The notes beneath the pieces are model-generated. The model was given only the letters and a program-made list of their open reading frames with translations. It did not search any database and was not told the origin of the DNA. From positions 437 through 64,436 of IMG/VR virus record IMGVR_UViG_3300031707_006565: a stretch of 64,000 nt of DNA, one strand, 5' to 3'. How positions within the stretch are numbered: position 1 is the first letter of the stretch; the number at the start of each line of letters is the position of its first letter. Below, piece after piece: positions 154 through 39,228 of this stretch. The position numbers were made by a program, and so were the translations under genes. The stretch comes from a virus (lineage: Duplodnaviria; Caudoviricetes).

Positions 154-491
154 ACGTTATTCCCATGACACAGTGTCGTAAATGTACCGCATTTAATCAA
201 GAACGTAAATGTCTCAACCGACCCGACTTATTAACGTCTTTATCCCCGGGTAGGAAAAGACGCTGTCTCTTTACTAGCCAAGGATTAAAAGCGTTACACA
301 AAAATTTTGTCGAGTTTACTAATAAAGCAAAAACCGCTGCTTTTTCTATCCGCCAGTTAACCGGCTCAACTCTCAAACTCAAATCTTCCCAAAATGTCAT
401 TGCGAGCGATCGAAAAAAGCGAAGTAATCTTATCTTATTAATAATAAATTTCTTCAAAAATTTAATTCGTACCATTCGTGGTAAAAAATGA
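150..491 (+). CDS. Hypothetical Cys-rich early protein; C-terminal part translates repeat elements
   Basis: CxxC..C motif; ATGA overlaps at both ends. Confidence 0.55.
   Translation: MNVIPMTQCRKCTAFNQERKCLNRPDLLTSLSPGRKRRCLFTSQGLKALHKNFVEFTNKAKTAAFSIRQLTGSTLKLKSSQNVIASDRKKRSNLILLIINFFKNLIRTIRGKK
396..430 (+). repeat. GTCATTGCGAG...GTAATCT palindromic (REP-like) element
   Basis: Related copies at 13082-13110, 30330-30391 and 14496-14521. Confidence 0.7.
465..488 (+). repeat. ATTCGT..ATTCGTGGTAAA periodic element (family A)
   Basis: Same motif at 1980, 4796, 6864, 8284, 19585 and 24516. Confidence 0.75.
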
Positions 492-609
492 AACTTACGG
501 GGCAGGAAGTAGGAATATTGGGTAAAATGACCACTGTATCCCTGCAGACAATCCCGAGCCCAACAGTCTGGTCTGTCCTGCCCTTCTTTTTTCGTGGTGA
601 TTTTAATTT

Positions 610-729
610 ATGAACTATAACTATCTCGCTCTCTTTAATCTTAATCAACTGTTTATATTTATTTGTGGTCTTATGAATGCAATTTGCTTAATCATTGCAT
701 TCGTATATTTTATTCTATTAAAGGAGTAA
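610..729 (+). CDS. Small hydrophobic peptide (39 aa)
   Basis: ATGA-coupled to ORF 488-613; hydrophobic stretch LFIFICGLMNAICLIIAFVYFILL. Confidence 0.4.
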   Translation: MNYNYLALFNLNQLFIFICGLMNAICLIIAFVYFILLKE

Positions 730-731
730 TT

Positions 732-806
732 ATGCCATTGCTTTATTTAACTATCTTAGCTTTTTTAATTTGGGCATTATTTGATGAAATGGGATGGCTC
801 GATTAA
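732..806 (+). CDS. Small membrane peptide (24 aa)
   Basis: AAGGAG RBS at 721-726; MPLLYLTILAFLIWALF; TAATG overlap with the next ORF. Confidence 0.4.
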   Translation: MPLLYLTILAFLIWALFDEMGWLD

Positions 807-1006
807 TGTCACGTTATGTCGATAAGATACTTACCAAAGAAAAGAAAATAGAATTCATAATGAGGACGATTTGGAATTCAATAGATACTCATTTTTATTA
901 TATTCATACCAAAAAGAATCATCCTCAGATAGGTAATCGCAAATTCCATAAACAACGCATTAAAGAGTATATGAAATGCATGAAATTCTTAAGTGAACTT
1001 TTATGA
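806..1006 (+). CDS. Hypothetical phage protein
   Basis: ORF track 794..1006; ATG 806 is coupled to the upstream stop. Confidence 0.55.
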   Translation: MSRYVDKILTKEKKIEFIMRTIWNSIDTHFYYIHTKKNHPQIGNRKFHKQRIKEYMKCMKFLSELL

Positions 1007-1033
1007 TAAAATTATATTTAGAAAGGAGTCAAT

Positions 1034-1972: not shown

Positions 1973-1979
1973 TTCTTTT

Positions 1980-2020
1980 ATTCGCATCCATTCGGTTAAT
2001 TCGTGTCCATCTATAGTTAA
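1980..2020 (+). repeat. Family A periodic element
   Basis: ATTCGCATCC ATTCGGTTA ATTCGTGTCC ATCTATAGTTAA. Confidence 0.7.
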
Positions 2021-2033: not shown

Positions 2034-3695
2034 TTGAACAAAAATCCGATTTCCATTGACCTTGAGCGAAAGATTGAAATGGAATTAGCTACCGATAAAA
2101 AATCTCAGGTGATTGCCCGCTGGGCAGAGACTTTGAAAATCTCGCCTCGCACCTTATATCGTCATTTCGAGAAGAAAGTTAAAACCCATTATCCCCAGAA
2201 AGTCGCGAATGACGACCTAATGAAAATCGCCGCCATCAAATTCTCTACTCTGGATAAAAAAGGCGATTCGCTTTCCACTACTGATACCATTGACGAACTT
2301 AAACGGCTTGGCGTTCTGACCGATTTCAATTTTGTCCGATCTACCATTGACCGTCAGATGAAAAAGCAACGCCTCAATATCACGTCATTAACCCAGCCCT
2401 CGCCGGCAATCCATCTTGTCTCTTATTTCCCTAATCAGGTTCACGAAATTGATGCAACGGTCGCCCCGACTTATTATCTGGATAACCTTAACAGGATTGC
2501 CTGGGACCCATTTGCTCAGGCTCGGCACCGACGTAAGGCAACTACCGATTATAAACTCATTTTATATTCCGGTTGGGACCATTTTTCCGGCACGCTCTAT
2601 GCCCGGTATTTTCTCGCCCTGGCTGAGAATTCACCCGACTTATTCCAATTCTTGTATGATTTCTGGTCTAAGAAAAAAGATTCCGCATTGCCCTTTCATG
2701 GCTTTCCTACCCAATACCTTTATACTGACCAAGGCGGTATCTGGAAATCCAGACCCATCGAATCCTTAATGACCCGCTTACAGAAAATTGTCGGCTGCAA
2801 ACATCAGAAGCATCTGCCTGGTGAACCGCGTGCCACCGGCGGTGTTGAGGCAAGCATGCGCACTTTAAAGCGATTCGAAAAGAAATTACGTATTCGCATC
2901 AAATCCGGTCAGAAACCGAACCTCGAAGAGTTGAACAAATGGCTCTATGAATTTTTAGTTGACTTGAATAATAATCCGTCGCATGGTAAAGAAAATAAAT
3001 CCCGCAGCCAGCGCTGGCTTGAATTCGTTGAATCAACTCACCTCAAATCGCCTCCGCCGTTCATTGATTTTTTAAAAATGGCTTATAATAAAGGCGAGAC
3101 CCGTCAGATCAATAAATTCGGTGAGGTCAACTGGCAGGGTAAAACTTATCATCTGCCCGGCTTGGAAGACAAAATCGGGCAGGAGATATTAATCTGGCAT
3201 GGCTTCAAAGAAGGTGCCATCTACATCGAATATTATAATGAAATTTATGGTCCGTTTTATCCTGGTCGGAACGAAATTCCGTTCGGTCAATATCATGCTT
3301 TCCCATTGACTCGCTATGAAAAAACCAAGCGTCAGCTCAAAGATATCGCTTCTGGTATCCTGGGTCAACCGGATGAGAATAATTTCGAAGACCCGACTTA
3401 CGTGCGGCAGGATAACGTTACTCATAAAACGCCCGAATCCCAGAAAATTACCGTTGAAGGCGGTGTTGTTAATGCCCAGTTCCCGGCTCAGCAGTATTTC
3501 ACTCATGAAGATGCGATGCTTTATATTTCAATTACGCTTGGTTTTTACTGGCAGGATATCGCGAATGAATTAAAGGATTTCATTGCGAGTCAGCTGGAAG
3601 AAATGTATTTAAAAGCCGGTTCGATTAGCCGCGAATATCTGGACGGCATTTGCGCTAAGCTCGAACCGGTCTTTAAAAATCACGGAATTTTATAA
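2034..3695 (+). CDS. Mu-like DDE transposase (MuA analogue)
   Basis: N-terminal HTH (ISPRTLYRHF); HEIDAT, YTDQGG and PRATGGVE catalytic motifs; C-terminal beta domain. Confidence 0.9.
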   Translation: MNKNPISIDLERKIEMELATDKKSQVIARWAETLKISPRTLYRHFEKKVKTHYPQKVANDDLMKIAAIKFSTLDKKGDSLSTTDTIDELKRLGVLTDFNFVRSTIDRQMKKQRLNITSLTQPSPAIHLVSYFPNQVHEIDATVAPTYYLDNLNRIAWDPFAQARHRRKATTDYKLILYSGWDHFSGTLYARYFLALAENSPDLFQFLYDFWSKKKDSALPFHGFPTQYLYTDQGGIWKSRPIESLMTRLQKIVGCKHQKHLPGEPRATGGVEASMRTLKRFEKKLRIRIKSGQKPNLEELNKWLYEFLVDLNNNPSHGKENKSRSQRWLEFVESTHLKSPPPFIDFLKMAYNKGETRQINKFGEVNWQGKTYHLPGLEDKIGQEILIWHGFKEGAIYIEYYNEIYGPFYPGRNEIPFGQYHAFPLTRYEKTKRQLKDIASGILGQPDENNFEDPTYVRQDNVTHKTPESQKITVEGGVVNAQFPAQQYFTHEDAMLYISITLGFYWQDIANELKDFIASQLEEMYLKAGSISREYLDGICAKLEPVFKNHGIL

Positions 3696-4184: not shown

Positions 4185-4201
4185 ATCATTAGTGCTAAAA
4201 G

Positions 4202-4271
4202 GGATTTGTAACTCAGATGGTAGAGCACCAACCATAGTTGGAGGTCGAGGGTTCGATTCCCTTCAAATCTC
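4202..4271 (+). ncRNA. tRNA-like element with a 4-nt anticodon loop (pseudo-tRNA or mimic)
   Basis: Acceptor GGATTTG/CAAATCT, D-arm CTC-AGATGGTA-GAG, stem CCAAC-CATA-GTTGG, T-arm GAGGG-TTCGATT-CCCTT; no encoded CCA. Confidence 0.8.
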
Positions 4272-4295
4272 TTTTGGCATTTTTAAAAGAATACC

Positions 4296-4860: not shown

Positions 4861-5766
4861 ATGTTTCGAGTTAACATGCCCAATAAGATTTTTCAGTCCC
4901 GGGCATTAAAAGAAGTAAAACGAAAAATCGTTGATGCAGTCTCGGAGCCGGGCGGCATTCTTGCCATTATCGGTGAAGTTGGCATCGGCAAGACGATTGC
5001 TACGATTGATGGTCTTGGTTCGTTCGAAGACGTGGGCAATAACGTCATCTGGTGTCGTCAGCTCGATAAGGAAAATTTAAAAATTGGCGTAATCGTCAGC
5101 TCAATAATCCGTCATTTTAACGAACTGCCCCGCAAAGACATTGATGCCCGCACCGAACAAGTGCGCCGGTTACTCGGTCAATCATATTCTAATGATAAAA
5201 AGACGATCATGGTGATTGATGAAGCCCATGCCTTGCACTATCAGACCTTGCGTGCTCTGAAACGTCTATTAGAACTCAATTTCGGCAATCAAATTGGTCT
5301 GCTCTCGATTGTTATGGTTGCCCCGCCCGCCCTTTATGAAAAATTAAATCAGGTTGAAGAAATTTCTTTACGGACCGATATTCTCGAAATGCGAGGATTA
5401 ACTAATGAAGAAGCAAAAGAATATTTATCTTTCGTGCTTAACTGGAATCGCATCAAGCTCGAAAATGACGTGATTGATTACCTATCCCAGCAGAATCACA
5501 ATCCTTTAAAACTGGTTATCGCGGTTAATAAAATTGACGAGATTCAGAAACGTCTGGGCAGCACCCTGCCGCTTGCCAAGCTCAAGTCCCAGTTCCTTTC
5601 GCCGCTGCGCCAGAAGATCGAAGAATCCGGTCTATCTCAGCGTCAGCTCGCCCAGAAAGCCAATATTTCTGCTACTACCTTGAATCAGGTCCTGCAAGGT
5701 AATTATCCAGGCAACACCCAAAAAATTATCAAAGATGTAGAAAAAGCATTAGTGGAGGTACAATGA
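4861..5766 (+). CDS. MuB/ExeA-like AAA+ transposition ATPase with C-terminal XRE HTH
   Basis: Walker A GEVGIGKT, Walker B MVIDEAH; SGLSQRQLAQKANISATTLNQVL. Confidence 0.85.
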   Translation: MFRVNMPNKIFQSRALKEVKRKIVDAVSEPGGILAIIGEVGIGKTIATIDGLGSFEDVGNNVIWCRQLDKENLKIGVIVSSIIRHFNELPRKDIDARTEQVRRLLGQSYSNDKKTIMVIDEAHALHYQTLRALKRLLELNFGNQIGLLSIVMVAPPALYEKLNQVEEISLRTDILEMRGLTNEEAKEYLSFVLNWNRIKLENDVIDYLSQQNHNPLKLVIAVNKIDEIQKRLGSTLPLAKLKSQFLSPLRQKIEESGLSQRQLAQKANISATTLNQVLQGNYPGNTQKIIKDVEKALVEVQ

Positions 5767-6248
5767 GAATCAAACCAAAGAGCCTTTATCCGATTAAAGA
5801 TTTAATCGAGGCTAACGTAATCTTAGGAAAAATCGCTCAGCTTCAGCGTGACATTATTTGTTTTGAGACTGATGCCCAGAATAAAATCGACCACATCAAA
5901 GATATTATTGCCGGTAAAATCCATCCTTTAGCCAAAGAAATCAATAAGCTTGAACTCAGTCTTTCTGCTTTCGGGCATACCAATAAAGATGAATTATTTA
6001 AGGATTATAAGACCGCTGAACTTAATTTTGGATTTATCGGTTTTCGTAAATCAACCAAAATTACCATCGTCCGCCAAACTCTCAAACTCTTAAAACAATT
6101 AAAATATCTCGATGCGATTATCGTGAAAGAATCAGTGAATAAGGATGCTCTTGCCACCTATCCGGCTGAGAAACTAGCCGAAGTGAAAGCCAAACGTAAG
6201 TCTGAAGACAAATTCTGGTATGAAATCAAAACCGATACGAAATCTTAA
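5763..6248 (+). CDS. gam: Mu Gam-like host-nuclease inhibitor
   Basis: KTAELNFGFIGFRKS...IIVKESVNKDAL...EDKFWYE. Confidence 0.85.
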   Translation: MRIKPKSLYPIKDLIEANVILGKIAQLQRDIICFETDAQNKIDHIKDIIAGKIHPLAKEINKLELSLSAFGHTNKDELFKDYKTAELNFGFIGFRKSTKITIVRQTLKLLKQLKYLDAIIVKESVNKDALATYPAEKLAEVKAKRKSEDKFWYEIKTDTKS

Positions 6249-6280
6249 ACCTTGAACTCTTCAACTTTTAATCTTTAATT
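6244..6280 (+). repeat. TTTGAAC/TTTAAAC-type 7-8-mer tandem (family B)
   Basis: CTTAAAC CTTGAAC TCTTCAAC TTTTAATC; also at 16528, 18129, 20375, 38911 and 39154. Confidence 0.7.
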
Positions 6281-6283
6281 GAA

Positions 6284-6834: not shown

Positions 6835-6897
6835 AACTGCAGATTAAATTAATTCTAAAAAATAATTCGATTAATCCGTGTAATCTGTGGTTTAAAA
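6835..6897 (+). repeat. Family A element with its inverted partner (hairpin)
   Basis: AAACTGCAGATTA ... TAATCCGTG TAATCTGTGGTTT. Confidence 0.65.
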
Positions 6898-7127: not shown

Positions 7128-7352
7128 GTGGATATTCTCCTTATCCTTCGCTATTTGCAAAATCCCGGATTACCGATTGTCATCCTGGTCGTTTGTCTCA
7201 CCATTCTCTATCGGATTTTAAAACGCGAACAGCAAAAACATGACGCGACCCGGAAACGACTTGATGAAGTCCATACCCGGCTCGAAGCCCGTCTTTATCA
7301 TGAACTCGACGAATTAGAAAAACTCTTGCAGAAAGAGAGACCTAAAAAATGA
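7128..7352 (+). CDS. Putative holin (single TM plus coiled coil)
   Basis: Hydrophobic GLPIVILVVCLTILY; directly upstream of the endolysin. Confidence 0.55.
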   Translation: MDILLILRYLQNPGLPIVILVVCLTILYRILKREQQKHDATRKRLDEVHTRLEARLYHELDELEKLLQKERPKK

Positions 7353-7780
7353 TTGAAGGTCCTAAAATCACCAGCCATTTCTTTTGGAAAGAAGTATATT
7401 GCAAATGTGGTAAATGTGGTGAGATGCCCAAATCAGTCAATTTCAACGTTCAAATGTTCGCAAAAGTTTTAGAAAAAGTCCGAAAGACTGTAAACAAATT
7501 AGCAGCAAAATATGATCTCAATCTCGGTGAAATCCACCTGATAATTACTTCCTGGTATCGTTGTTATGATAAGAATAGTGCTCATAGTACTGGCTTGGCC
7601 GTCGACATCGCATGCGAAAATAATATCATGCGATTTCTTATTACCAGCGCTGCAATTAAATGTGGTATTACCCGGATTGGTGAATACGTTCCGAACCAAA
7701 ATCGAAAAATAATTCACCTTGATATTGATGACACCGATCTCCAGAAAAGGCCACTATACCAACTGTGGGTAGAAGCATGA
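7349..7780 (+). CDS. Peptidase M15-family endolysin
   Basis: HF.WKE..CKCG, ITSWYRC, SAHSTGLAVDI, IHLD. Confidence 0.85.
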   Translation: MIEGPKITSHFFWKEVYCKCGKCGEMPKSVNFNVQMFAKVLEKVRKTVNKLAAKYDLNLGEIHLIITSWYRCYDKNSAHSTGLAVDIACENNIMRFLITSAAIKCGITRIGEYVPNQNRKIIHLDIDDTDLQKRPLYQLWVEA

Positions 7781-8283
7781 GTCATAAAATCGATATTCGG
7801 GAAAGAGCTTTCGTTCTTTATAATCAGGGTTATTCCTTTGATCGTATCCGCACGATTCTCGGGGAAGAGGGCGTAACCGTTTCCCGGCGCGCCATATTTA
7901 ACTGGGAAGATAAATTTCAATGGAAAATTCGTCGCCAGAAAATCCAGAAAGAAGTCCGGACAAAAATTGACCAGAAGCAGGTTTCCGAAATCACCCAGCT
8001 TTCCACTCAACTTTCCGAATTACAGGATGATCTGCTTGGTGAACTTAAAAACGTCAAGCTAAAAACCAAAGAAGGCGGCATTGCTGCTTTGCGGCAATTG
8101 CACGATATGCGTCAGCGTCTTTTGGGTGACAAGCGATTTGACGAACACCTCGATGAACTCATTGCTCTTATTTTTGAAATCCTTGCCACCGATGAAATTC
8201 TTGGACCAAAACTCAAAGACCGGCAATCAATCATTGTCGACCGTCTTGAAAAAACTTTAAAAGAAAAATATGGTATTCGATAA
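7777..8283 (+). CDS. Putative small terminase subunit (HTH)
   Basis: N-terminal HTH (RAFVLYNQG...VSRRAIFNW...W); upstream of the large subunit. Confidence 0.65.
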   Translation: MSHKIDIRERAFVLYNQGYSFDRIRTILGEEGVTVSRRAIFNWEDKFQWKIRRQKIQKEVRTKIDQKQVSEITQLSTQLSELQDDLLGELKNVKLKTKEGGIAALRQLHDMRQRLLGDKRFDEHLDELIALIFEILATDEILGPKLKDRQSIIVDRLEKTLKEKYGIR

Positions 8284-8316
8284 ATTCGTGCTTATTCATG
8301 TTTTTCGTGGTAAAAA
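8284..8316 (+). repeat. Family A periodic element filling the whole intergenic gap
   Basis: ATTCGTGCTTATTCATGTTTTTCGTGGTAAAAA then ATG. Confidence 0.75.
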
Positions 8317-9969
8317 ATGTTAGCCACTACATCCCGTCCCGTATCTACCCGCAGGCTTGGCGATGCTGCCTTGCGCGGCATTAAAAAGGCAACTGCCAAA
8401 GACTTGTCATTTCTGGATTGGATCCGGGAAATCAAAATTACTTTACGTGGCATTCCTTTTAGTTTTGAAGGTCATGAATACCTGCGTGAACCTTATACCA
8501 AACATCACGATAATGAAATTTATATGAAAGCAGCCCAGGTCGGGATTTCAACCCGCAAATTATTCAAATCCCTCTGGCTTTGCGATACTCATCATGCAAA
8601 GGTAATTTATTATTTTCCGACCGATAGCGAAGTTTCCGATTTTTCCAATGACCGGGCCCGTCCCATGATTGAGGAGAACGAATATTTAAAGTCCCGTGTC
8701 CGGGGCATTGACAATGTTGGTTTAAAGCAGATGGGCGATTCGTCAATCTATTTCCGTGGTATGTTCTCCCGCACCAGGGTTAAATCGGTTGATGCCGATT
8801 ACATCATTCTTGACGAGCTTGACGAAGCCGATCAGGAAAATAAGGAATATGCCAAAGACCGGATTCTTCATTCTCGCTTAGCATGGATGAGCCAGTTATC
8901 TCAGCCCTCGATTCCTGATTTTGGTATTCATCAGGAATTTGAAGAATCGGATCAGCGCGTCTGGGCAATTCAATGCGATAAATGCAATCATTGGAATTTC
9001 TTTAATCCCAATAAACCCAATGAAGCGCTCGAGTATACCGAAAAATTTCTATATCAGAATACCTGGCATTGTACCAAATGCGGCCGTGCCTTTACCGAAC
9101 CTTTAAAGCAGGAATGGATTCCGTTAATGCCTTCTCATAAGGAAAAAAGAGGTTATCATCTAACCCAGCTCTATTCAAAAATCATTCCGATTTCTAAAAT
9201 TCTCGATGCAATCCAGAAAGCAAAAACCCGTCGTATTTTACGGGCCAGACTCTTTAATTCAATTCTCGGCATTCCTTATACCGATGAAATCCGCCAGCCG
9301 GTTACCGATGATATTATCCAGAAATCTCAGGGCGATTATGGATTTTTACCTTCTGCCCAGATGTCTTATATGGGAGTTGACGTCGGCGATATGCTACACG
9401 TTGTCATTGGTCAGGACTTTGGCAAAAACGTTCAAATCGTGCATCTTGAGGCAACCGAAGATTGGGGACGGTTAAAGACTCTAATGATGGAGTTCGGCGT
9501 CTGGCAATGTATCATCGATTTTATGCCTTATAAGCCAAGCGCAAGGAATTTTGCCCGTGAATTTCCCGAGCGGGTCGTACTTCAATACTTCAAAAATTCG
9601 CGTGAAGAAAAGGGTGATGAAATTGAGAAAAAAGAAGAGGACGAACTGCCGGTCATCCGGATCGGACGTACTGAATCACTTGACGATACGACCGACCAGA
9701 TCCGTGATGGTTCATTTATTTTTCCGAATCCTTCAAAACTCACCATCGCTCAGCTCGTCGTTTACGAATCGTTCAAAGACCACTTAAAAAAATTAATCAA
9801 GGATTTAAAAGAAGACGATAAAGGCAATCGCTGGTTCGAATACAAATTCAGAGTTCCAAATCATTTTGGCATGGCGCTCAATTCGATGCGGCTTGCCATT
9901 GCATATAATAAACTTTACGGCAGCCGATTTTACGGCGCCGGTATCGCTTACTCAAAAATAAAACCATGA
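8317..9969 (+). CDS. Terminase large subunit, GpA-like
   Basis: MKAAQVGIS, DADYIILDELDE, Zn ribbon CDKC/CTKC, nuclease MGVDVG. Confidence 0.88.
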   Translation: MLATTSRPVSTRRLGDAALRGIKKATAKDLSFLDWIREIKITLRGIPFSFEGHEYLREPYTKHHDNEIYMKAAQVGISTRKLFKSLWLCDTHHAKVIYYFPTDSEVSDFSNDRARPMIEENEYLKSRVRGIDNVGLKQMGDSSIYFRGMFSRTRVKSVDADYIILDELDEADQENKEYAKDRILHSRLAWMSQLSQPSIPDFGIHQEFEESDQRVWAIQCDKCNHWNFFNPNKPNEALEYTEKFLYQNTWHCTKCGRAFTEPLKQEWIPLMPSHKEKRGYHLTQLYSKIIPISKILDAIQKAKTRRILRARLFNSILGIPYTDEIRQPVTDDIIQKSQGDYGFLPSAQMSYMGVDVGDMLHVVIGQDFGKNVQIVHLEATEDWGRLKTLMMEFGVWQCIIDFMPYKPSARNFAREFPERVVLQYFKNSREEKGDEIEKKEEDELPVIRIGRTESLDDTTDQIRDGSFIFPNPSKLTIAQLVVYESFKDHLKKLIKDLKEDDKGNRWFEYKFRVPNHFGMALNSMRLAIAYNKLYGSRFYGAGIAYSKIKP

Positions 9970-9978: not shown

Positions 9979-12687
9979 ATGAATATTTTTCAGAAATTAT
10001 TTTATAGATTCCAATCTTCAAAATCGGTGAAATTACCGGTTGATGCCGGTCGCATCTCCCGCGAATCATCACTCGATATTTTGAATCGTTTCCAGGGTGA
10101 CTGGGCTTTTCTTGATCCGGAAATTCCGTCCAATATTATTCAGGCAATCGAACGCTTTGCCTTAATCATTCCAGATTTATCACAGAATACAAAAAATATC
10201 ATCAATCTCGGCAATACCGGCCACGAACTTAAAGTTATTGCTGCGCAGGAAAGCACAATTAAGCAGACGGAAGACCGGCTTAATCAATTAGCCCGTACCA
10301 TCTATCCGTATGGTGGTACTGACGGACTCGTTAATAAAATGCTTTCCGACATTGCCATTTTCGGTGCGCCTTCGATTGAAGCGGTAATTCAGCCCGATTT
10401 AAAGGGCGTCAAAAAAATAATTATCGTGCCTCACCATGAAATTGTTTTTAAATACGATTCTATAGAAGACGATTATCTGCCTTATCAAAAGACCGGCAGC
10501 TCCACCCTTGATTATATTAAACTTAATCCATTGACTTATTATTATTCGCCGCTTTTTCAGCGCCGCAATTCACCGTATGCAATTCCGCCCATGCTTGCCG
10601 CCATTTCACCCTTATTAAATCAACTCTTTATGTCGGAAAATATCCGATTCGTCATGAAAAAAATCGGCTTACTCGGATTAATTCACGCCGTTCTTGCTAC
10701 CCCGCCTCGCAAGACAACCGAGACCGATGAGCAGTATCTTTCCCGGCTCAGGACTTATCTTGGTGACGTTGCGTCTGACCTCACTAAAAATTACCGTGAT
10801 GGCGTGATGATTACTTATGATGAGGTCGAGTTAAAGCATTTTGCGGTAGCATCCGACATTCGGGGCGTAAAAGATTTATTTGAATCGAACGAACAGCAGC
10901 TCGCTTCCGGCATGGGCACTGATCCGGCTATGTTGGGCAGGACTTATTCTACGACCGAAACTTATGCCGGAGTGGTTTATAATAAATTGATTCGCGAAAT
11001 CGAGAACATCCGTAGAATCGTCCGGCGCGGCATTGAAAAAATCTATCTTCTGGATCTCTGGCTTGCCGGTATACCGGTTGAAGACGTTAACGTCGAATTT
11101 AATCCCAACGCCCAGCTCAAACCTAAAGAGGAAGCCGAAATCCAGCAAATCAAGGAAACTTCCAAAACCAATCTTTACATTAATGGAGTCATAAAGCTTG
11201 ACGAAGCCCGTGAAGACCTCGGCTATCCACCTTTAGAGCCTGCTGCTAGTCAAGGCAATCAATCTCAATCCGCCCGATTCGTTTTTAAAGACGGTAAATA
11301 TATTTTAATGGGCCGCACTCACACCCGTGATAAAAAAAAAGTATCGCTAACCATCGATGAACAGAAAATCGAAAACCAACGTCTCGAATACATTGATGCC
11401 TATCTTGGGAATATTATTGAACTTGATGATTCGGTCCGCCAAGAGATTATGCAGGAATTAAAAGACCGCAATGCACAGGGTCAATTACCTTCTGACGTCG
11501 AAGGATTCGTGAACGAAGTCTATTCGACAATCACTACCCGTTATCCTGCGTTTGCCCGTGAAGCCGGTTTAGCTGATTTAGTCAAGCAGAATATCCAGAC
11601 CATTTATAAATTCTATCGACTCACTGATACTTCACTCTGGGGCGATGAAAAGCCGATTATGACCAGTCTTCAGCAGCCGGACGTCCGGGCTCAGGATTTT
11701 CTTTCCCGTCTTGACGATATCTATTTTTCCGATTACGTCCAGAATCAGGATTTTAAAAATCAGTTAACCGGTTTCCTGCGCGATACGGTTATGGAAAAAG
11801 GATTACCCGCAACCGATGCCGTCCTCGATGAATTTGGCAATGAATGGGCAAACAATTCCGACCTGCAGGTTCGCAGGATCATTGATACCGGTGTCACCCG
11901 TGTCCGCACTTTTGCCCATATCCGCCAGATGCGCCAGTCCGGAATCAAAGAACTGGAAGTTATGGAAGTAATGGACCGCATAACCTGTGCTTTGTGTCGC
12001 GAAGCCGATGGCAGAATCATTCAAGTCTCAGCAGCCGACGAAATCATTGAATCCGCTCTTGCTTTACCGGTTGATGAATTTAAAGATCGTTATATTTCAG
12101 GTTCCGCAACCGAAACTGAGATGATGTCCTCTTCACTCGCTGATCTTATCCCTCAAGGCAAGGGTTTAGCGCCATTTCATGTAATTTGTCGAGGTAGAAA
12201 CAAAGTCTATTTCCGCAAATCTTATCTTGAATACGAACAAGAATATGGTGAATTGCCCGATATTGAAAAACATTTGAATGGTGATTATCAGGATTACGGC
12301 AAAAAGATTTCATTTGAATACTCGGAAAAATCTGATGATGGCACCATCGAAAACAAAAAGACCAAACAGACCATTAAGTATAGCATTGAAAATTTCACCG
12401 GTAAAAAGATTTATCTGACTCAGGAAGGCATCCGGCACTCAACTAAAAATCATACCGACGATCAAACCCGCCAGAATGCGATTAGAATGGCTGGTTCCGT
12501 CGTAGCCAATCCGGATTCAATCAACGTCGATTCCCGGCGGGGTAACGATACTAAAGTTTATCTACGTTCGGTTCGTGGTGCCAATTATGCCGTTATAACT
12601 AAACGTTGCGGACCCGAAATAATCTGGTCTGCCTTTGAATATCAGAACAAATCTACTGCCTGGCGACAGGTCTGGCAGCGGAGATAA
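9979..12687 (+). CDS. Portal protein fused to a MuF (gp30-like) domain and a C-terminal putative BECR-fold nuclease
   Basis: Portal features (SPYAIPPMLAAI, DPAMLG, DEAREDLGYPPL); MuF D.ITCALC...APFHVICRG; C-terminal IYLTQEGIRHS.KNH...NPDSI...WSAF. Confidence 0.75.
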   Translation: MNIFQKLFYRFQSSKSVKLPVDAGRISRESSLDILNRFQGDWAFLDPEIPSNIIQAIERFALIIPDLSQNTKNIINLGNTGHELKVIAAQESTIKQTEDRLNQLARTIYPYGGTDGLVNKMLSDIAIFGAPSIEAVIQPDLKGVKKIIIVPHHEIVFKYDSIEDDYLPYQKTGSSTLDYIKLNPLTYYYSPLFQRRNSPYAIPPMLAAISPLLNQLFMSENIRFVMKKIGLLGLIHAVLATPPRKTTETDEQYLSRLRTYLGDVASDLTKNYRDGVMITYDEVELKHFAVASDIRGVKDLFESNEQQLASGMGTDPAMLGRTYSTTETYAGVVYNKLIREIENIRRIVRRGIEKIYLLDLWLAGIPVEDVNVEFNPNAQLKPKEEAEIQQIKETSKTNLYINGVIKLDEAREDLGYPPLEPAASQGNQSQSARFVFKDGKYILMGRTHTRDKKKVSLTIDEQKIENQRLEYIDAYLGNIIELDDSVRQEIMQELKDRNAQGQLPSDVEGFVNEVYSTITTRYPAFAREAGLADLVKQNIQTIYKFYRLTDTSLWGDEKPIMTSLQQPDVRAQDFLSRLDDIYFSDYVQNQDFKNQLTGFLRDTVMEKGLPATDAVLDEFGNEWANNSDLQVRRIIDTGVTRVRTFAHIRQMRQSGIKELEVMEVMDRITCALCREADGRIIQVSAADEIIESALALPVDEFKDRYISGSATETEMMSSSLADLIPQGKGLAPFHVICRGRNKVYFRKSYLEYEQEYGELPDIEKHLNGDYQDYGKKISFEYSEKSDDGTIENKKTKQTIKYSIENFTGKKIYLTQEGIRHSTKNHTDDQTRQNAIRMAGSVVANPDSINVDSRRGNDTKVYLRSVRGANYAVITKRCGPEIIWSAFEYQNKSTAWRQVWQRR

Positions 12688-13051: not shown

Positions 13052-13081
13052 AGATGATCTTTTTCCTTTTCTGTCCATTAT

Positions 13082-13110
13082 GTCATTACGAGCCAAAGGC
13101 GCGGTAATCT
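13082..13110 (+). repeat. GTCATTACGAG...GTAATCT element
   Basis: Matches 396-430. Confidence 0.65.
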
Positions 13111-13123
13111 TCAGAAAATAAAT

Positions 13124-13152
13124 TTGACAAAACTTTGAATAACCAATATAAT
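13124..13152 (+). promoter_or_regulatory. Consensus sigma70 promoter of the moron
   Basis: TTGACA-17 nt-TATAAT, then AGGAGG RBS. Confidence 0.85.
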
Positions 13153-13181
13153 CTTAAAAATTTAAAAATCAGGAGGATTCT

Positions 13182-13902: not shown

Positions 13903-13926
13903 CAAGGATTAAAAATGAAATATAAT
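13899..13926 (+). promoter_or_regulatory. Second consensus sigma70 promoter
   Basis: TTGACA-16 nt-TATAAT overlapping the stop at 13902 and the ATG at 13915. Confidence 0.55.
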
Positions 13927-14473: not shown

Positions 14474-14495
14474 CTCTTTGAAAATTTGTAAATAA

Positions 14496-14521: not shown

Positions 14522-14539
14522 ATAAAATCGAGGCCCAAG

Positions 14540-24568: not shown

Positions 24569-26434
24569 ATGCCTATTGAAAAACTTGGTATCGAAATTGA
24601 CGCCATTGCCAAAGATGTTGCCAATCTCAAGGCAATGGTTCAGGATTTGAAAGACATCCAGACTGCCGCCGGTGGTGCTCAAACTAAGATGTCCGATTTT
24701 CAGAAGCAGGCTGAACAGACCCGCTCCCTGCGTGAAACCTTCCAGTCCATGGGTCAAATAGGGCTTGAAATGATGGCAGTTTCCGGTGGCATTCTCTATG
24801 GTATTAAAAAAATTGCAACCAGTTTCATTGATGCTTCGGTTGAGACTGAAAAATATGAACTTACTCTAAAGACTCTTTTTAAGAGCGCCCAAAAGGCAAA
24901 AGAAGAGCTTGTCTGGGCTAAAGAATTTGAGGACCTTACGCCTTATGCCCTACAGGATGTTATCAAATCAACCGTTATCTTTCGTAGTTTTGGTCTTGAT
25001 GCCCGGAAATATCTTGGCATGGCAGGTGATATGGCGGCCGTGTATGGCGGTGACGCTGCGACATTGGAAAGCGTTGTAACCGGTGTTGCTCGAGCAATGA
25101 AAATTGGCGCTGGCGGAATGGATATTTTAACTCGAAGTTATGCTATAAATGCTCGGGAGGTAAAAAAATTCGGCTGGTCAGGTCAGACAGAAGATATTGA
25201 AGGATTTCGCAAAGCTCTCGAAAAGCTTCTTGTAACCCGATTCGGTGGCGGCATGGCCGAACTTGCGAAAACTCTACCCGCTTACATTGAAGGTCTTCGT
25301 AGCCAATGGAAGAGTTTTAAAGAAGATGTTGGTACACCATTAAAAGTTGCGATACTTCCTGACATTGCTAAATTATATGAAGACATCCGAAAATTTCGAA
25401 AAACCGATGAATATCTAAAATGGGTCCAAACTATTAAAGATATTTTCGTTGGCATGTACGAGGCCATCAAAAAAACCGTTACCGAAGCTTGGAAACTTTT
25501 AAAACCAATCCTTCAATTTCTTAAAACCCATCCCGAATTTGCCAAGCTCGCCGGTAAGATTCTTTTTGTCGGTAGTGCCCTTGGATTAGGCATCGGTGCC
25601 GCCTTACGTTTTACGTCTCAGATTGGATTAACTATCCTTAGTGTTATGGCATTAAAGGCATCACTCATTAGTATTCTTAGTTCTGCTGGTTTAGCTGGTG
25701 TTGCTGGAGCTCTTAGTGGCATTACTAGTTTGCTACTTCCTCTCGGTGGTATCGCTGCTGCCGCTTTTATTGGCTGGGGTCTTGGACAGATAGCTGATGA
25801 TCTAATAATTGGTGAACGTTCTCTTGCTAAATGGGTCGAATATATCTATGACATTATTGCTGGAGGTCCAGAGGCAAAGAAAACATTTGAAGATCTTGAA
25901 TTAATTGAAAAAGGTAAAGGATTTCAGCGACAATTCAAAGACATCAAAAATCTTCGAGGATTAATTGCAAAAGGATTAGAAGATATTCCGCCTGAATTAA
26001 TGAAGTATAAACTTGAACAAAAATTACCTAAAAGTTTAAAAGAGGAATGGCAAAATCTTATTGATAAAGGAATAATTCTCCATGCCACACCCGAAACTTA
26101 TGGTTTAGCATTGGCCGAACTTGATAAAGCCCTCTATGGCTATTCACGTAGGCGGAATCAAATAAATGAACAACTAAAATTAGCCACCCTTATTGATGAG
26201 CGTAAAAAACAAGAACCCCAAATTGCCGGCGTCCCCACTCCGGCCGACCTTGGCATTACGCCGGTAACTGATATTTATGCCACAACCCGTCCCGAGATTG
26301 ATAACTATTATTACACGATTCATTTCGAACGCGATTCGGTCCAGATTAATACTCTTGATCTGAGTCCGGAAAAATTCAAGAAACTGCTCATTGAAATGTT
26401 CAACCGCCAATCCTTAGGTCCCCAAACCCCATGA
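24569..26434 (+). CDS. Tape measure protein
   Basis: TPYALQDV motif, Ala/Gly-rich helices, hydrophobic segments. Confidence 0.88.
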   Translation: MPIEKLGIEIDAIAKDVANLKAMVQDLKDIQTAAGGAQTKMSDFQKQAEQTRSLRETFQSMGQIGLEMMAVSGGILYGIKKIATSFIDASVETEKYELTLKTLFKSAQKAKEELVWAKEFEDLTPYALQDVIKSTVIFRSFGLDARKYLGMAGDMAAVYGGDAATLESVVTGVARAMKIGAGGMDILTRSYAINAREVKKFGWSGQTEDIEGFRKALEKLLVTRFGGGMAELAKTLPAYIEGLRSQWKSFKEDVGTPLKVAILPDIAKLYEDIRKFRKTDEYLKWVQTIKDIFVGMYEAIKKTVTEAWKLLKPILQFLKTHPEFAKLAGKILFVGSALGLGIGAALRFTSQIGLTILSVMALKASLISILSSAGLAGVAGALSGITSLLLPLGGIAAAAFIGWGLGQIADDLIIGERSLAKWVEYIYDIIAGGPEAKKTFEDLELIEKGKGFQRQFKDIKNLRGLIAKGLEDIPPELMKYKLEQKLPKSLKEEWQNLIDKGIILHATPETYGLALAELDKALYGYSRRRNQINEQLKLATLIDERKKQEPQIAGVPTPADLGITPVTDIYATTRPEIDNYYYTIHFERDSVQINTLDLSPEKFKKLLIEMFNRQSLGPQTP

Positions 26435-26498
26435 CCCCGTTAGATAATTTAATGTTTACAATTTTTATGCAATTAATTAATTTTTTATCTAATGGGGT
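26434..26498. repeat. ACCCCGTTAGATAA...TTATCTAATGGGGT inverted repeat
   Basis: 14-bp arms (one G-U pair), AT-rich spacer; fills the intergenic gap. Confidence 0.75.
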
Positions 26499-26504
26499 GA
26501 AATT

Positions 26505-30738: not shown

Positions 30739-30784
30739 AAATAATTTTTAAATTTTTCAATTCTTAAATTTTATAAGGAGTTTT

Positions 30785-31315: not shown

Positions 31316-31354
31316 AATTTAAAATTCGGTCATTAGAAATTTGAAATTATAACT

Positions 31355-36658: not shown

Positions 36659-37782
36659 TGTTAATAAAACCTTATTTTGAAATTCCGAATTCTGTCTTTG
36701 AATGCCGCACTCTCGCTAGTTCAGGAATGAATTTAGATAATAGCCATATTAAGTTTGCTTGGATTGGTAATATTCCTAATACAGGCAACCTTACAAGGGT
36801 AGGGATTAGAGTTGATACTAATTCGCACTTACACAATGTCAAAGTAAGATTATATAACGTGAATACGGATGGTACACCAAATGAAAGTTCGCCGTATAAA
36901 GGTGTTAGTAGTTACGCAATTCTTGACCCGTCACTAACAAACTACGCGGTAAATAATTTATATTTGCTTGATTTGACTGTGGCAATTCCCGCCGAAAGAG
37001 GAGATTTAGTTGCGGTGGTGTTTAAGTGGGTGAATGATATTGGTGATATTGCTTTTACTAAGATTGATACGAGAGAGGGAGTAATATTTCCTTATCACGC
37101 TTACTATACTACTGCTTGGCATAAGAGTTCCTTTAGTCCTGATTACTCAACGATTGTTTTCGGATATGGAGATAATTTCTATGAAATGAATACTGCTCCG
37201 ATTAAAGACCGTTACAATACAGAATTATTGCAAGGTTATGAGGTGGCTTTAAGATTCAAAGTTCCTTATGAGTGTCGTTGTTGCGGTTTTTGGATGTATA
37301 TGGGCGGTGATACTTCTGTTACTGGTAATTATCCGTCCAATTTAGGGAAGTTAAGATTATATGAAGATGATGTTGTAATTTACGAAGAGGATTGGGATTC
37401 GTGGCGGCAAGGTGTGCAGAGTTCATCTTCGCTTACTGGTCTTTATAGATATAGTTTTGATGATGTTGCTAATGAACCCGTGTTAACCTTAAACCCAATT
37501 AAAGTTTATAAGTTAGCCTTGGAGTTAGAAACGACTGCGAGTGCTTATGGTACACAATATCGTGAAATTGAGGTTGCAGCTAAAGTTAAAAGCGGTAATG
37601 CGTGGGTAGATTACTCTTATCCAGAAAATTTATGGGGAGCAATTTCAGGCGGGAAGGAATTTTATAAAGTTTTAAGGCAAAGCGGGCAGTCTTGGATAGA
37701 ATATATAACAAAACGACCTTTATTTGGTATCTTTGTTGATGGATTAGAATTAGCTGAAGGAGACCACGCGGGAATTATATGA
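36658..37782 (+). CDS. Putative receptor-binding/fibre protein, paralog A
   Basis: Shares FPY.A.Y, F..PY...G.WM, REI.V and W....TKR...G with the next ORF. Confidence 0.6.
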   Translation: MLIKPYFEIPNSVFECRTLASSGMNLDNSHIKFAWIGNIPNTGNLTRVGIRVDTNSHLHNVKVRLYNVNTDGTPNESSPYKGVSSYAILDPSLTNYAVNNLYLLDLTVAIPAERGDLVAVVFKWVNDIGDIAFTKIDTREGVIFPYHAYYTTAWHKSSFSPDYSTIVFGYGDNFYEMNTAPIKDRYNTELLQGYEVALRFKVPYECRCCGFWMYMGGDTSVTGNYPSNLGKLRLYEDDVVIYEEDWDSWRQGVQSSSSLTGLYRYSFDDVANEPVLTLNPIKVYKLALELETTASAYGTQYREIEVAAKVKSGNAWVDYSYPENLWGAISGGKEFYKVLRQSGQSWIEYITKRPLFGIFVDGLELAEGDHAGII

Positions 37783-38915
37783 ATAGGTTTTCTACATTAG
37801 AGATTCCGTCACAACAAATGGATTTTTCAAGCATAGCATCGACTGGTTATACAACTCTAAACGAAAAAAGTGATAGAATGGCTTATATGTTTAGACTTAC
37901 GAAGACGGCTGAACCTGTGGCGTATATTAAAGGTGTTGGTTTATTTGTGGACTATGTTAGAGGAAAGCCAAAAATAAAGGTGCAGATTCAGGAATTGTAC
38001 GATAGGAGTAATGGAGATTATGATACGGGCGTGCCTATTTCTGACCCTGCTTATCCAGAGGTTAATGGGGTAGCTTATAGAAGTTGTAGTGAAGAAGTGA
38101 TAGAAATAAATGATGTAGGATATTATCGAATTGATTTTAGTTCACCACCAGATGTATCACCGCAGATGCTTGGACATATTGTCGCAGTATCTATTGGAGT
38201 AGATACTATTGATGAAGGAGCGAATGAAGAGGTAAGATTTGCAAAAGTCAATCAGCGGGACTCAATGAACTTTCCATATTTTGCACACTATAATCAGAAA
38301 GCAACTAATTGGATACATCAAGCAGACTTTCCAGATGTGGCGGTAATTTATAGCGTGGAAGATGTGGAGATTTGTGTCATTACAGAAATGTTACCAGTCA
38401 CGGAGATTGCTGACCTTGAAGTTTATGCTAATCACCAAAGTAATACTCGTATTAACAAAGCGGGCAATATCTTTACATTGCCATACACGGTGATTGTAGG
38501 CGGTGTATGGATGTTTATTGATTCACTTGACGCTGATTGGCAGTTGAAGATATTGGATTCTAATGACAACATAGTTACTGCTGTTCAGTTTTATGCAGGA
38601 CAACAGGCAGGAGCAAATACGTCTTATCAGGCAGGTAGGAGAATTCTGTTACCAGGTGAATTTCCTTTAGTCAAAGATAGTGCTTATAAGTTAATTATTG
38701 ATATTGATTATAATTCAAATGTTAACTATCGTTGTAAAATGCGGGAGATAACTGTTAATGAAACTTTATTTTTAGATCAGTTCCAAGGCGAAGTAGAAAT
38801 GCACAAGATTACTAAAGCAGGTTCAAGTGCGTGGGTAGAAGACAATACGAAAAGAGTGTTGATGGGACTATTAGTAACGGGTATCGGCGGTAAGGAGAAA
38901 AGCTATGTATTTTAA
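37779..38915 (+). CDS. Putative receptor-binding/fibre protein, paralog B
   Basis: See paralog A; ATGA overlap. Confidence 0.6.
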   Translation: MNRFSTLEIPSQQMDFSSIASTGYTTLNEKSDRMAYMFRLTKTAEPVAYIKGVGLFVDYVRGKPKIKVQIQELYDRSNGDYDTGVPISDPAYPEVNGVAYRSCSEEVIEINDVGYYRIDFSSPPDVSPQMLGHIVAVSIGVDTIDEGANEEVRFAKVNQRDSMNFPYFAHYNQKATNWIHQADFPDVAVIYSVEDVEICVITEMLPVTEIADLEVYANHQSNTRINKAGNIFTLPYTVIVGGVWMFIDSLDADWQLKILDSNDNIVTAVQFYAGQQAGANTSYQAGRRILLPGEFPLVKDSAYKLIIDIDYNSNVNYRCKMREITVNETLFLDQFQGEVEMHKITKAGSSAWVEDNTKRVLMGLLVTGIGGKEKSYVF

Positions 38916-38960
38916 CTCTTCAACCTTTAAATCTTTGAACCTTCCTCCCGCCTGGCGGGA
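38911..38960 (+). repeat. Family B tandem plus TCCCGCC-T-GGCGGGA palindrome
   Basis: Seen directly in the sequence. Confidence 0.65.
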
Positions 38961-38963
38961 ACA

Positions 38964-39152
38964 ATGAGTAAAATTAACCCGTTTCTTATATCTATTTTAG
39001 CCTTGATTCCCGATCTTGGACCGTCACAGGAGTATTTAAAATGTCTTCGTTGTGGTGAACCGATCAAGAAAGATTATTATTGTGATCGATGCGCACCTTG
39101 GCGAAAAAAAAAAATACAAATCCCGGTAATACCGCATCCACCCAAAGCATGA
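38964..39152 (+). CDS. Small C4 zinc-finger protein, paralog of 3695-3886
   Basis: NPFL...LIP...LKCLRCGEPIKKDYYCDRCAPWR. Confidence 0.65.
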   Translation: MSKINPFLISILALIPDLGPSQEYLKCLRCGEPIKKDYYCDRCAPWRKKKIQIPVIPHPPKA

Positions 39153-39153
39153 T

Positions 39154-39228
39154 CTTTAAACCCTCAAACCATTCGACTTTTGACTTTTTATTTGACCCTT
39201 TGACTTTTGACCTTTCTCTTTTGACTTT
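39154..39228 (+). repeat. TTTGAC(T/C) 7-mer tandem array
   Basis: GACTTTT GACTTTT TA TTTGACC CTTTGAC TTTTGACC ...TTTGACT. Confidence 0.75.

Follow-up and report, generated by a model that had tools for sequence, protein, structure and literature searches.

Short repeat elements occupy most of the longer gaps between genes in the first 39.4 kb of a 64,000-nucleotide stretch of viral DNA (bases 437-64436 of the 64,436-base record IMGVR_UViG_3300031707_006565, classed in IMG/VR as a provirus; hereafter the window), a region that forms a single plus-strand gene chain of a Mu-like transposable phage. We assign a probability of roughly 55% to the reading that these junction elements are the portion carried by the prophage of the small repeats dispersed through intergenic DNA of its host lineage, and not a phage-specific system. 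Three kinds of element are mixed along the chain: GTAG-tagged repetitive extragenic palindromic (REP) hairpins of the kind linked to REP-associated tyrosine transposases (RAYTs), GTCATT...AATC hairpins, and direct-repeat arrays of 7-10 nt. Because several families are common to cellular genomes and the fillings differ between related phages, the elements look like invading small repeats rather than a code of the phage's own. The preliminary description of this DNA had proposed an undescribed junction-targeted system. Our results support this only in part, as the system is not the phage's own and many of its elements are of known kinds: the GTAG hairpin is a REP, and the GTCATT hairpins and TTCGTG arrays are multicopy repeats of WOR-3 metagenome-assembled genomes (MAGs). 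A low-GC, WOR-3-like bacterium from sediment is the probable host.

Junction elements exceed the expectation from base composition

We printed and inspected all gaps between consecutive plus-strand genes in the chain, which comprises 54 genes and 53 junctions. Gaps of at least 20 nt were found at 27 of the 53 junctions (28 gaps when the stretch after the last gene is included), and the other junctions were tight. About 22 of the 28 long gaps contained a clear element, a count made by eye without a fixed rule. The earlier statement that most gene junctions carry an element therefore stands for the long gaps and fails overall, as only about 40% of all junctions have one. Twenty-four previously listed sites, both tandem 7-10-mers and hairpins, were confirmed as placed (396, 465, 1980, 4796, 6244, 6864, 8284, 13082, 14496, 16528, 16954, 18129, 19099, 19585, 20375, 21948, 23988, 24516, 26434, 30743, 31314, 38911, 38946, and 39154). 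Those at 19428 and 30330 were weak, and the site at 16080 was ruled out as a junction element, lying inside the coding sequence of the gene at 15099-16526. The elements are confined to the gaps between a stop codon and the next ribosome-binding site (RBS).

Both short-range and shared repeats placed the gaps above composition-matched shuffles. Within the 27 gaps (2,454 nt), 72 exact 5-mers recurred at a distance of 6-12 nt, compared with 33.9±8.2 in dinucleotide shuffles (maximum of 60; 0 of 500 reached the observed count) and 29.2±8.0 in length-matched coding windows (maximum of 58 in 500). We also found 71 9-mers common to at least two gaps, against 36.2±8.2 in shuffles (maximum of 62; 0 of 300). 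Sharing of 7-mers between gaps showed no excess over shuffles (264 versus 254±14), and a fixed-period gapless tandem score, which is too strict for imperfect arrays, was weak, with p<0.05 in 8 of the 27 gaps. All four copies of TTCGTGGTAAA in the window lie in junctions. The same 5-mer test gave 39 versus 38.0±9.6 for the right-hand flank (39.5-64 kb), bearing out for tandem repeats the reported absence of the families from that region.

The 16 arrays have units of 7-14 nt that are arranged head-to-tail as imperfect copies in intergenic DNA, and they represent at least four unrelated unit families within 39 kb. They had been described as always pyrimidine-rich on the coding strand, which is too strong: C+T exceeded 0.5 in 13 of the 16, and the array at 18094-18127 is purine-rich. 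With T at 0.45 and G at 0.11, versus 0.27 and 0.20 in coding sequence, a more accurate description of the arrays is T-rich and G-poor. Rfam had no family at any junction element (positions 1-40000, E<=1); there it matched only a tRNA (4202-4271) and, below threshold, a snoRNA within coding DNA.

Several repeat families are shared with cellular genomes

The exact 23-mer at 23988-24010 (with one degenerate position) was found in at least 120 stretches of genome_contigs, a set of species-representative genomes, with 131 matches listed. Among the matches listed, the record titles of these stretches (loci L143-L262) carry 18 taxon labels, among them WOR-3, Nitrospirota, Brocadiales, Thermodesulfobacteriota, Elusimicrobia, Actinomycetes, and Omnitrophota, and several MAGs have 5-10 contigs each with the REP. 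The window has one copy, and the 23-mer also occurs in the sister phage locus L109. By eye, an inverted partner (...GCAAMCCTRAAGGKTTGCCCTAC) lies near the REP in most host loci; the window copy is single. The REP is also often preceded by a conserved ...GAATGAAAACCAAA... stretch in loci L143-L262. The range of labels suggests either that one REP/RAYT system has spread widely by horizontal transfer or that mobile DNA was mis-binned.

Five MAGs picked as REP carriers (G001-G005) served as stand-ins for the host; gene calls in the loci that we inspected were crude. Genes of the Y1_Tnp family were present in five of the five MAGs tested. The one REP-flanked Y1 gene among six Y1 loci inspected lies in L296 (Elusimicrobia MAG G005), where five GTAGGGCAA(G/T)GCTT copies and four inverted partners surround a Y1_Tnp match at 1501-1788 within about 500 nt. 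A family search of the window record found no Y1 transposase.

GTCATT hairpins numbered 98, 62, and 9 in G002, G003, and G004 and 0 in G001 and G005, and reversed-pattern controls gave 0. In G002, these hairpins follow no orientation rule, with 5 sense and 5 antisense copies between co-directional genes (n=10), 6 between convergent genes, and 4 between divergent genes. Tandem TTCGTG had 19 and 12 matches in G002 and G003, both low-GC WOR-3 MAGs, versus 0 and 1 in the reversed control, and these arrays end in the style of the window (...TTCGTGG and ...TAATCTGTGGTTAA). The GTAG REP, the GTCATT hairpin, and the TTCGTG arrays are chromosomal repeats of uncultivated bacteria; CTTTRAAC was not enriched in the stand-ins (see below).

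A strict rule identified 66 tandem 7-9-mer arrays in the REP-bearing host loci. Some consist of ATCTGYG x3 followed by G, the same style as at 6874 and 19585 in the window, and arrays styled like that at 6858-6895 occur in Brocadiaceae, Nitrospirota, and WOR-3 MAG loci. Between co-directional open reading frames (ORFs) in the 120 REP loci, 23 of 30 arrays were purine-rich on the coding strand, an unreliable count given the crude gene calls and the many arrays at about 50% purine. Locus L277 of MAG G003 contains a near-perfect palindrome of two array families, CACAGATT x2 plus CACGAAT x2 followed by their complements, which by its sequence appears to be a gene-less paired-arm element in a chromosome. 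We also searched viral_contigs for the exact 16-mer TTCGTGGTAAAAAATG and discarded it, as its 23 stretches were all in unrelated coding-looking contexts, at about the chance level.

Fillings of orthologous junctions differ between sister phages

Relatives were sought through the large terminase (TerL). A single-TerL query of viral_contigs gave no match, a TerL-alignment search of the same set returned only relatives at <=41% identity, and the alignment search of genome_contigs found no relative. The best match among isolated phages was 29% identical. Metagenomes contained TerL relatives of 66-80% identity and an identical copy on a 140-kb contig, and an alignment of twelve TerL relatives led to loci L104-L113, which are syntenic with the window over 1034 to 21991.

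Which of 14 orthologous junctions were expanded varied from phage to phage, as did the fillings. The junction between the small terminase (TerS) and TerL genes illustrates this. It is a stop/start overlap in five sister loci and 33 nt of ATTCGTG units in the window. In L111 (TerL 95% identical), it spans 75 nt of GATTACA plus AATCTTCT units in paired arrays, and in L113 (TerL 87% identical), it spans 84 nt with units of CGACGTC and CTCCGTG. The flanking genes of L113 align with those of the window up to the TerS stop codon and from the TerL ATG, and the junction itself is not alignable. In L113, the TTTGAAC family occupies a junction whose counterpart in the window is an overlap. The junction at 1973-2012 measures 0-9 nt or is an overlap in 4/4 sister loci, and that at 20378-20406 is an overlap or 2 nt in 4/4. 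The hairpin junction at 19099-19179 is reduced to 2-9 nt in 3/3 sisters, that at 16952-17012 to 12 nt in L107 and L109, and that at 16527-16569 to 12 nt in L109, with other elements in L104, L107, and L108. Tight or overlapping versions exist among the sisters for most junctions, so the sequence comparison shows the junction elements to be dispensable in sister phages.

A strain about 95% identical to the window phage was represented in two further sediment runs (X2 and X3). The contigs of sequencing runs X1-X3 are DNA contigs that show presence and not absence. This strain has joints 13053->13898, 16468->16581, 18079->18162, and 18992->19185; joint 18079->18162 appears in contigs of both X2 and X3, as does the loss of the cassette 13054-13897, with 2 nt in its place. 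In the X2 strain, the array at 8284 has three one-base deletions. Elements 19084-19149 and 19585-19619 were matched by many short unrelated contigs of the runs; several such contigs of X1-X3 match the hairpin at 19099-19179, and several contigs of each run have loose ends at 19585 and 19619. The variability among related phages anticipated by the preliminary description is thus present, with orthologous junctions either tight or holding other elements and a close strain differing at several of them. Since orthologous junctions are tight or differently filled, gain and loss must be fast, and the comparison shows element turnover to be much faster than gene change.

Crowding of this kind extends beyond the window. 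The tandem statistic was raised in L106, L107, and L109 and strongly so in a few distant Mu-like viral contigs; of 80 loci, 7 had z>3, with a pooled ratio of 1.42. The viral contig L030 (TerL 38% identical) reached 109 versus 24.0±7.1, a more extreme crowding than in the window. Its 15 gaps in 21.5 kb are nearly all filled, by TTGAATA arrays, CCACGAATTACACGAAT arrays, and hairpin doublets like those of REPINs (REP doublets forming hairpins).

Folding and translational context

The elements fell into two folding classes. Strong hairpins (z -3.4 to -5.4) occur in the regions 14400-14601 (z -3.6), 16948-17025, 19087-19194, 23926-24022 (z -4.2), and 26435-26504, and the arrays fold at about 0 to -2.6 kcal/mol. 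The low structure of the arrays is due to their composition, as z was ~0 against dinucleotide shuffles. We considered pairing across the capsid gene between an arm of the hairpin at 16952-17012 and the array at 18094-18127, which are of the same family in opposite orientation, and set it aside for the local hairpin as the simpler fold. In the printed gaps, the arrays abut a Shine-Dalgarno sequence or a start codon. A Shine-Dalgarno sequence was missing in 12 of the 27 gaps of at least 20 nt and present in the other 15, and promoter-like TTGACA/TATAAT sites in the gaps stand apart from the arrays.

Origin and possible roles of the elements

If the junction elements are host-lineage repeats, they may have entered by DNA-level insertion or local expansion while the Mu-like phage resided or replicated in such hosts. 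A host-supplied Y1 transposase is the likely agent for the REPs, and the arrays may have come by some other route or by local expansion. Insertions would survive only in stop-to-RBS gaps, because insertion elsewhere breaks a gene. Once present, the elements would be transcribed within the long late operons, and side effects at the RNA level are likely. There, the strong hairpins might act as processing, stabilizing, or partial-termination points around highly expressed genes such as that for the capsid, and the T-rich, G-poor arrays might form unstructured leaders that uncouple neighboring cistrons. Such leaders may also support initiation where a Shine-Dalgarno sequence is missing, a role that matters because so many of the long gaps lack one.

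Several observations weigh against an origin in host repeats. The commonest array of the window, CTTTRAAC, was not enriched in the five MAGs (tandem CTTTRAAY matched 0, 0, 1, 2, and 0 times versus 0, 1, 0, 0, and 0 in controls). When a related TerL was sought in G001-G005, none of these stand-ins had one. Such repeats are not in excess in the 25-kb flank, which lies on the same contig. With its integrase and defense genes, this flank may itself be a recent island. Any mechanism for array insertion is hypothetical. The 12 long gaps without a Shine-Dalgarno sequence are more in line with arrays that take part in initiation than with neutral ones. Finally, the ATTCGTG-type and CTTTRAAC-type arrays all lie on the plus strand, and each family has one orientation within the window, which is not expected of random insertion. 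Orientation was read from the printed gaps, as an exact motif search locates only part of the arrays.

These last two points belong to an alternative that we consider unlikely, in which the arrays are selected translation-initiation RNA elements. Here, U-rich, G-poor, unstructured leaders just before the start codon would recruit the 30S subunit, for instance through ribosomal protein S1 or another binder of single-stranded RNA, arrays would replace or assist the Shine-Dalgarno sequence, hairpins would set segment stability, and the phage would have adopted the initiation mode of its host. Besides the missing Shine-Dalgarno sequences and the uniform orientation, the abutment of arrays on Shine-Dalgarno sequences or start codons and their T-rich, G-poor, weakly folding character are consistent with this idea. 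So is the TAACTGA repeat of Beggiatoaceae, which is forward, start-adjacent, and mostly without a Shine-Dalgarno sequence in the sections of PMC4679880 cited here. However, the weak folding is a composition effect, and the same junctions work in sisters as overlaps or as 9-15-nt gaps with only a Shine-Dalgarno sequence. Unit sequences vary from family to family and, at one junction, among close relatives, which does not fit a single sequence-specific binder. Furthermore, the coding strand of L030 has the ATTCGTG family in the opposite orientation throughout, and WOR-3 MAG loci also have such arrays upstream of a promoter-like site for a tRNA gene.

Paired arrays and four-helix-bundle genes

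In host-type genomes, arrays are often found in inverted pairs that either form bare hairpins or flank a small four-helix-bundle (PF05635) gene. The preliminary description had pointed to a link between such motifs and small inserted genes, and this link holds in host-type MAGs. PF05635 had 8, 9, 16, 0, and 4 matches in the five MAGs. In 11/11 host loci, the neighbors of the gene are co-directional ORFs on its own strand. Heptamer arrays in inverted orientation flank it, with a unit that changes at nearly every locus, and the inverted repeat was significant in 8 of 12 cases (z 5.8 or more, 0 of 200 shuffles). These loci (L319-L332, from MAGs G001-G003 and G005) include one between tRNA genes. 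PF05635 resembles the Avd protein of diversity-generating retroelements, as stated in the part of PMC10053308 used here. A search of literature listings found no description of such inverted arrays around PF05635 genes; an earlier description is possible.

Phage arrays form paired arms or single arms. The arms at 16952-17012 and 19099-19179 enclose no gene and are able to pair. The small inserted genes were reported as missing from the window, and the record indeed has neither a Y1 transposase nor PF05635 (0 matches at E<=0.1). Gene-filled versions of the junctions, which had been envisaged in related phages, did not materialize either, as tblastn with 12 host PF05635 proteins (E<=1e-3) gave no match in the window or in 119 related phage loci.

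We tentatively raise the improbable idea of "messenger intervening sequences," a so far undescribed class of inserts with inverted arrays of private heptamers as arms that would sit in the operon junctions of many uncultivated bacteria and of their Mu-like phages. The arms would pair in the transcript in the manner of the stems of 23S rRNA intervening sequences, and the insert would be looped out or cut by a double-strand RNase, so that insertion into an operon would be made harmless and the polycistronic RNA punctuated. The paired-arm hairpins of the phage would be empty versions, and the single T-rich arms would be half versions kept as unstructured leaders. Private arm sequences might prevent cross-pairing and ectopic recombination between copies.

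It seems to us quite doubtful that cassette traffic has made the elements its landing pads or scars, with array-bracketed small genes entering and leaving operon junctions and with the phage hairpins and single arms as empty or half sites. The multicopy, co-directional PF05635 genes of host-type MAGs with their inverted arrays, the two phage hairpins with array arms, and the paired-array junction of L111 all suggest such traffic. In addition, an 844-nt two-gene cassette (13054-13897) with a GTCATT hairpin at its start is present or absent exactly at a junction. Against this idea, no PF05635-like gene was found in the window or the related phage loci, and the arms differ from copy to copy and so are not ends recognized by one recombinase. 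Most phage arrays are single arms in one orientation, and no recombinase is linked to the arrays. The cassette itself, encoding proteins of 165 and 79 amino acids (aa), has its own promoter-like site and genes without a Pfam family, and it looks like an ordinary moron.

Other explanations and implications

We consider it very improbable that the repeats are DNA-binding sites of a phage or host regulator, whether for a stoperator-like repressor, a late-promoter activator, or a transposase. Direct repeats with a period of 8-10 nt are typical of winged-helix regulators, and a TTTGACT array and GTGCAA x3 lie near the right prophage end. The junction position and orientation of the elements also resemble mycobacteriophage stoperators and start-associated sequences as presented in the cited parts of the literature (see below). 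However, there are many unrelated units with periods from 7 to 14 nt, and the units at a given junction differ between close relatives. These families are also present on unrelated chromosomes across several phyla, and the promoter-like sites are separate from the arrays. The notion that the feature is unreal, with repeats picked out by eye from low-complexity A/T-rich spacer, has in its favor the weak fixed-period test, the shuffle-level sharing of 7-mers, and several listed items that proved weak or coding, yet it is scarcely credible, being largely refuted by the shuffle tests and exact long matches in other genomes; the lack of excess in the right-hand flank under the same 5-mer test also speaks against it.

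If the junction elements are indeed host-lineage repeats, small host repeats (REPs, hairpins, and heptamer arrays) would readily invade temperate phage genomes, pile up at cistron boundaries as the sole permissive places, and turn over faster than genes. Junctions would then be usable as strain markers, and the repeat families could be host-linkage signals for uncultivated phages, here pointing to WOR-3-like hosts. Such repeats could also cause metagenome misassembly. The 23-nt REP under 18 taxon labels and the array-bracketed Avd-like genes may matter more than the prophage itself.

Catalogue of elements and genomic setting

Table 1. Junction elements and annotated genes of the window
Feature	Coordinates	Strand	Measure or remark
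GTCATT...AATCT hairpin, copy 1	396-430	+	
ATTCGTG-type direct-repeat array ending TTCGTGGTAAAAA	465-486	+	abuts ATG at 487
ATTCG-type array	1973-2012	+	between gene 1034-1972 and transposase gene
ATTCRTG array ending TTCGTGGTAAA	4795-4846	+	followed by AGGAGG
CTTYAAC / CTTTAAT array	6249-6283	+	fills gap; no Shine-Dalgarno before ATG 6284; minimum free energy (MFE) -0.6 kcal/mol
ATCCGTG TA ATCTGTG G TTTAAA array	6858-6895	+	
ATTCGTG array	8284-8316	+	fills TerS/TerL gap; no canonical Shine-Dalgarno
844-nt junction cassette	13054-13897	+	T-rich leader, GTCATT hairpin 13082-13110, TTGACA/TATAAT promoter-like site, two genes
GTCATT...AATCT hairpin, copy 3	14496-14521	+	followed by terminator-like hairpin 14541-14568
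CTTTAAAC / TTTGAAT array	16527-16569	+	~5 units; abuts AAGGAG; 55-nt gap MFE -2.0 kcal/mol
Hairpin with heptamer-array arms (TTCGCT units / GCGA units)	16952-17012	+	directly upstream of major capsid gene; MFE -31.9 vs -17.2 kcal/mol, z -5.0
Purine-rich TTCGCT-family array, reverse orientation	18094-18127	+	score 31 vs 19.2±3.6, max 30 of 300
CTTTRAAC array	18128-18160	+	right after purine-rich array
Hairpin with 9-mer array arms (CGCAGAGAC units)	19099-19179	+	36-nt arms, 78% complementary; z -5.4
TTTTTAAACAC x2 array plus ATCCGTG TTA ATCTGTG TTA ATCCGCG G array	19511-19619	+	abuts ATG 19620; within ORF 19421-19627, which has no sister homologue
CTTTGAAC / GTTTAAAC array	20378-20406	+	fills gap; no Shine-Dalgarno
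14-mer x2 (ATTGAGAATTTTTA-type) array, then GAAGGAGG	21946-21978	+	
Terminator-like hairpin	23937-23973	+	
Single GTAG-tagged REP hairpin	23988-24010	+	GTAG+GG+CAAGGC-TTTA-GCCTTG+C
ATTCGT array ending TTCGTGGTAAAAGGA	24510-24556	+	before tape-measure gene
13-nt inverted repeat (CCCCGTTAGATAA / TTATCTAATGGGG)	26435-26497	+	37-nt A/T-rich loop; z -3.4
AAATTTTT 8-mer array	30739-30775	+	G-free
GAAATT-type array	31316-31354	+	no Shine-Dalgarno before ATG 31355
CTTYAAC array	38916-38945	+	
TCCCGCC/GGCGGGA hairpin	38946-38960	+	directly after CTTYAAC array
TTTGACT/TTTGACC array	39153-39232	+	~7 units; after last structural gene, near right prophage end
Transposase	2034-3695	+	Mu-like
MuB-like protein	4861-5766	+	
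Gam	5763-6248	+	
Endolysin-like protein	7349-7780	+	
Small terminase (TerS)	7765-8283	+	
Large terminase (TerL)	8317-9969	+	
Portal fused to head-morphogenesis domain	9979-12687	+	
Capsid	17026-18084	+	
Sheath-like DUF2586 protein	21991-23451	+	
Tape measure	24569-26434	+	
DUF2326/CTD10 gene	50369-52117	-	between hsdR and hsdS
Small ORF	52101-52340	-	between hsdR and hsdS
HNH/CTD10 gene	52337-53086	-	between hsdR and hsdS
192-aa ORF, no Pfam family	54367-54945	-	between hsdS and hsdM

The prophage is identified as Mu-like from the predicted transposase, MuB-like, Gam, TerL, portal, sheath-like, and tape-measure proteins. Its left end lies outside the record. Three GTGCAA copies spaced by 11-12 nt at 39437-39465, between the last phage gene and the flank helicase gene, are candidate transposase-binding sites of the right end. 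The flank (39.5-64 kb) differs from the prophage in its lower GC content and encodes an MrfA-like helicase and an RNase H-like exonuclease as a pair (39472-42893), a type I restriction-modification operon (47217-56476, minus strand) with ABC-3C-type genes between hsdR and hsdS, and an integrase at the end.

Within the prophage, the gap at 4185-4295 contains a tRNA-like gene (4202-4271, plus strand) that scored 47.4 bits with the Rfam tRNA model (gathering score of 29). ARAGORN found no tRNA at these positions. The gene has no normal anticodon, as the loop on its anticodon stem has 4 nt instead of the expected 7. A Com-like zinc-finger sequence (CxxC...CxxC) lies at 13949-14473 on the plus strand in another frame, right after the stop of 13915-14250 and without its own ATG, an arrangement also seen in sister L109. 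It might arise by frameshifting or represent an overlapping gene that starts at TTG. The adjacent 149-aa genes at 18172-18621 and 18637-19086 both match one gene in L107-L109 with 36-48% identity and look like a tandem duplication specific to the window phage. Contigs of the ~95% identical strain skip 18622->19085.

Comparison with known systems

REP families are mostly found at the species or genus level. In the text cited from PMC3733652, REPs lie between unidirectional or convergent ORFs, downstream of coding regions, and some families occur in multiple species; REPINs and RAYTs are treated in the cited parts of PMC3116915 and PMC2817692. The element at 23988-24010 resembles these systems in being a short palindrome with a GTAG tag whose 23-mer is dispersed in many genomes, mostly with an inverted partner, and flanks a Y1_Tnp gene in one MAG. 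In contrast, the window has one copy only, located within a phage late operon, no Y1 transposase gene is present in the record, and the MAG taxon labels among the matches listed span more than the usual species or genus range.

The intervening sequences of 23S rRNA contain a PF05635 ORF ("S23p," Avd-like) between inverted repeats that are cut by RNase III. Similarly, the PF05635 genes of host MAGs lie between inverted repeats that could pair in the transcript, and the phage has gene-less paired-arm hairpins. However, the host MAG copies are between protein-coding or tRNA genes and not inside rRNA, and each copy has arms made of heptamer arrays with a unit of its own. A gene of this kind is missing from the phage.

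Phage T7 has RNase III processing hairpins between its genes, and Escherichia coli has REP hairpins that stabilize mRNA. The strong hairpins of the window likewise stand at cistron boundaries of long transcripts and flank the capsid gene, but their stems consist of tandem units, and cleavage or stabilization there is only hypothetical.

Mycobacteriophage stoperators and start-associated sequences, according to the portions of PMC9283540 and PMC3203893 cited here, provide a temperate phage with many short oriented sites in small intergenic gaps. A stoperator is one conserved asymmetric site that occurs in single copies and is bound by the repressor of the phage itself, and start-associated sequences are one conserved 13-nt motif. 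The window instead has tandem arrays of several unrelated units that are common to cellular genomes and not conserved between sisters.

The repeats of Borg extrachromosomal elements are perfect, have longer units, and often lie in genes. The window units, by contrast, are short, imperfect, and only at junctions, and several of their families are present in host-type genomes. As tandem direct repeats of a mobile element, Borg repeats are rapidly evolving and independently arising in the material cited from 10.1101/2022.05.18.492195. 

Similar short direct repeats are known as the STRR (short tandemly repeated repetitive) heptamers of cyanobacteria. The closest described parallel for the arrays is the TAACTGA repeat of Beggiatoaceae. 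TAACTGA repeats, which occur in Beggiatoaceae, Cyanobacteria, and Bacteroidetes, are intergenic direct repeats of 2-6 copies in mostly forward orientation. In Beggiatoaceae, they stop 1 nt short of start codons and are mostly not accompanied by a Shine-Dalgarno sequence, and their author proposes binding by S1, Csp, or CsrA (all from the cited sections of PMC4679880). The window arrays are likewise head-to-tail, intergenic, and adjacent to starts, with a Shine-Dalgarno sequence in 15 of the 27 long gaps and none in the other 12. However, TAACTGA is one unit used genome-wide in a cellular genome, whereas the window has several units of 7-14 nt (ATTCGTG/ATCYGYG, CTTTRAAC, TTTGACT, and AAATT types), in imperfect copies, in a phage, and in some cases as inverted arms.

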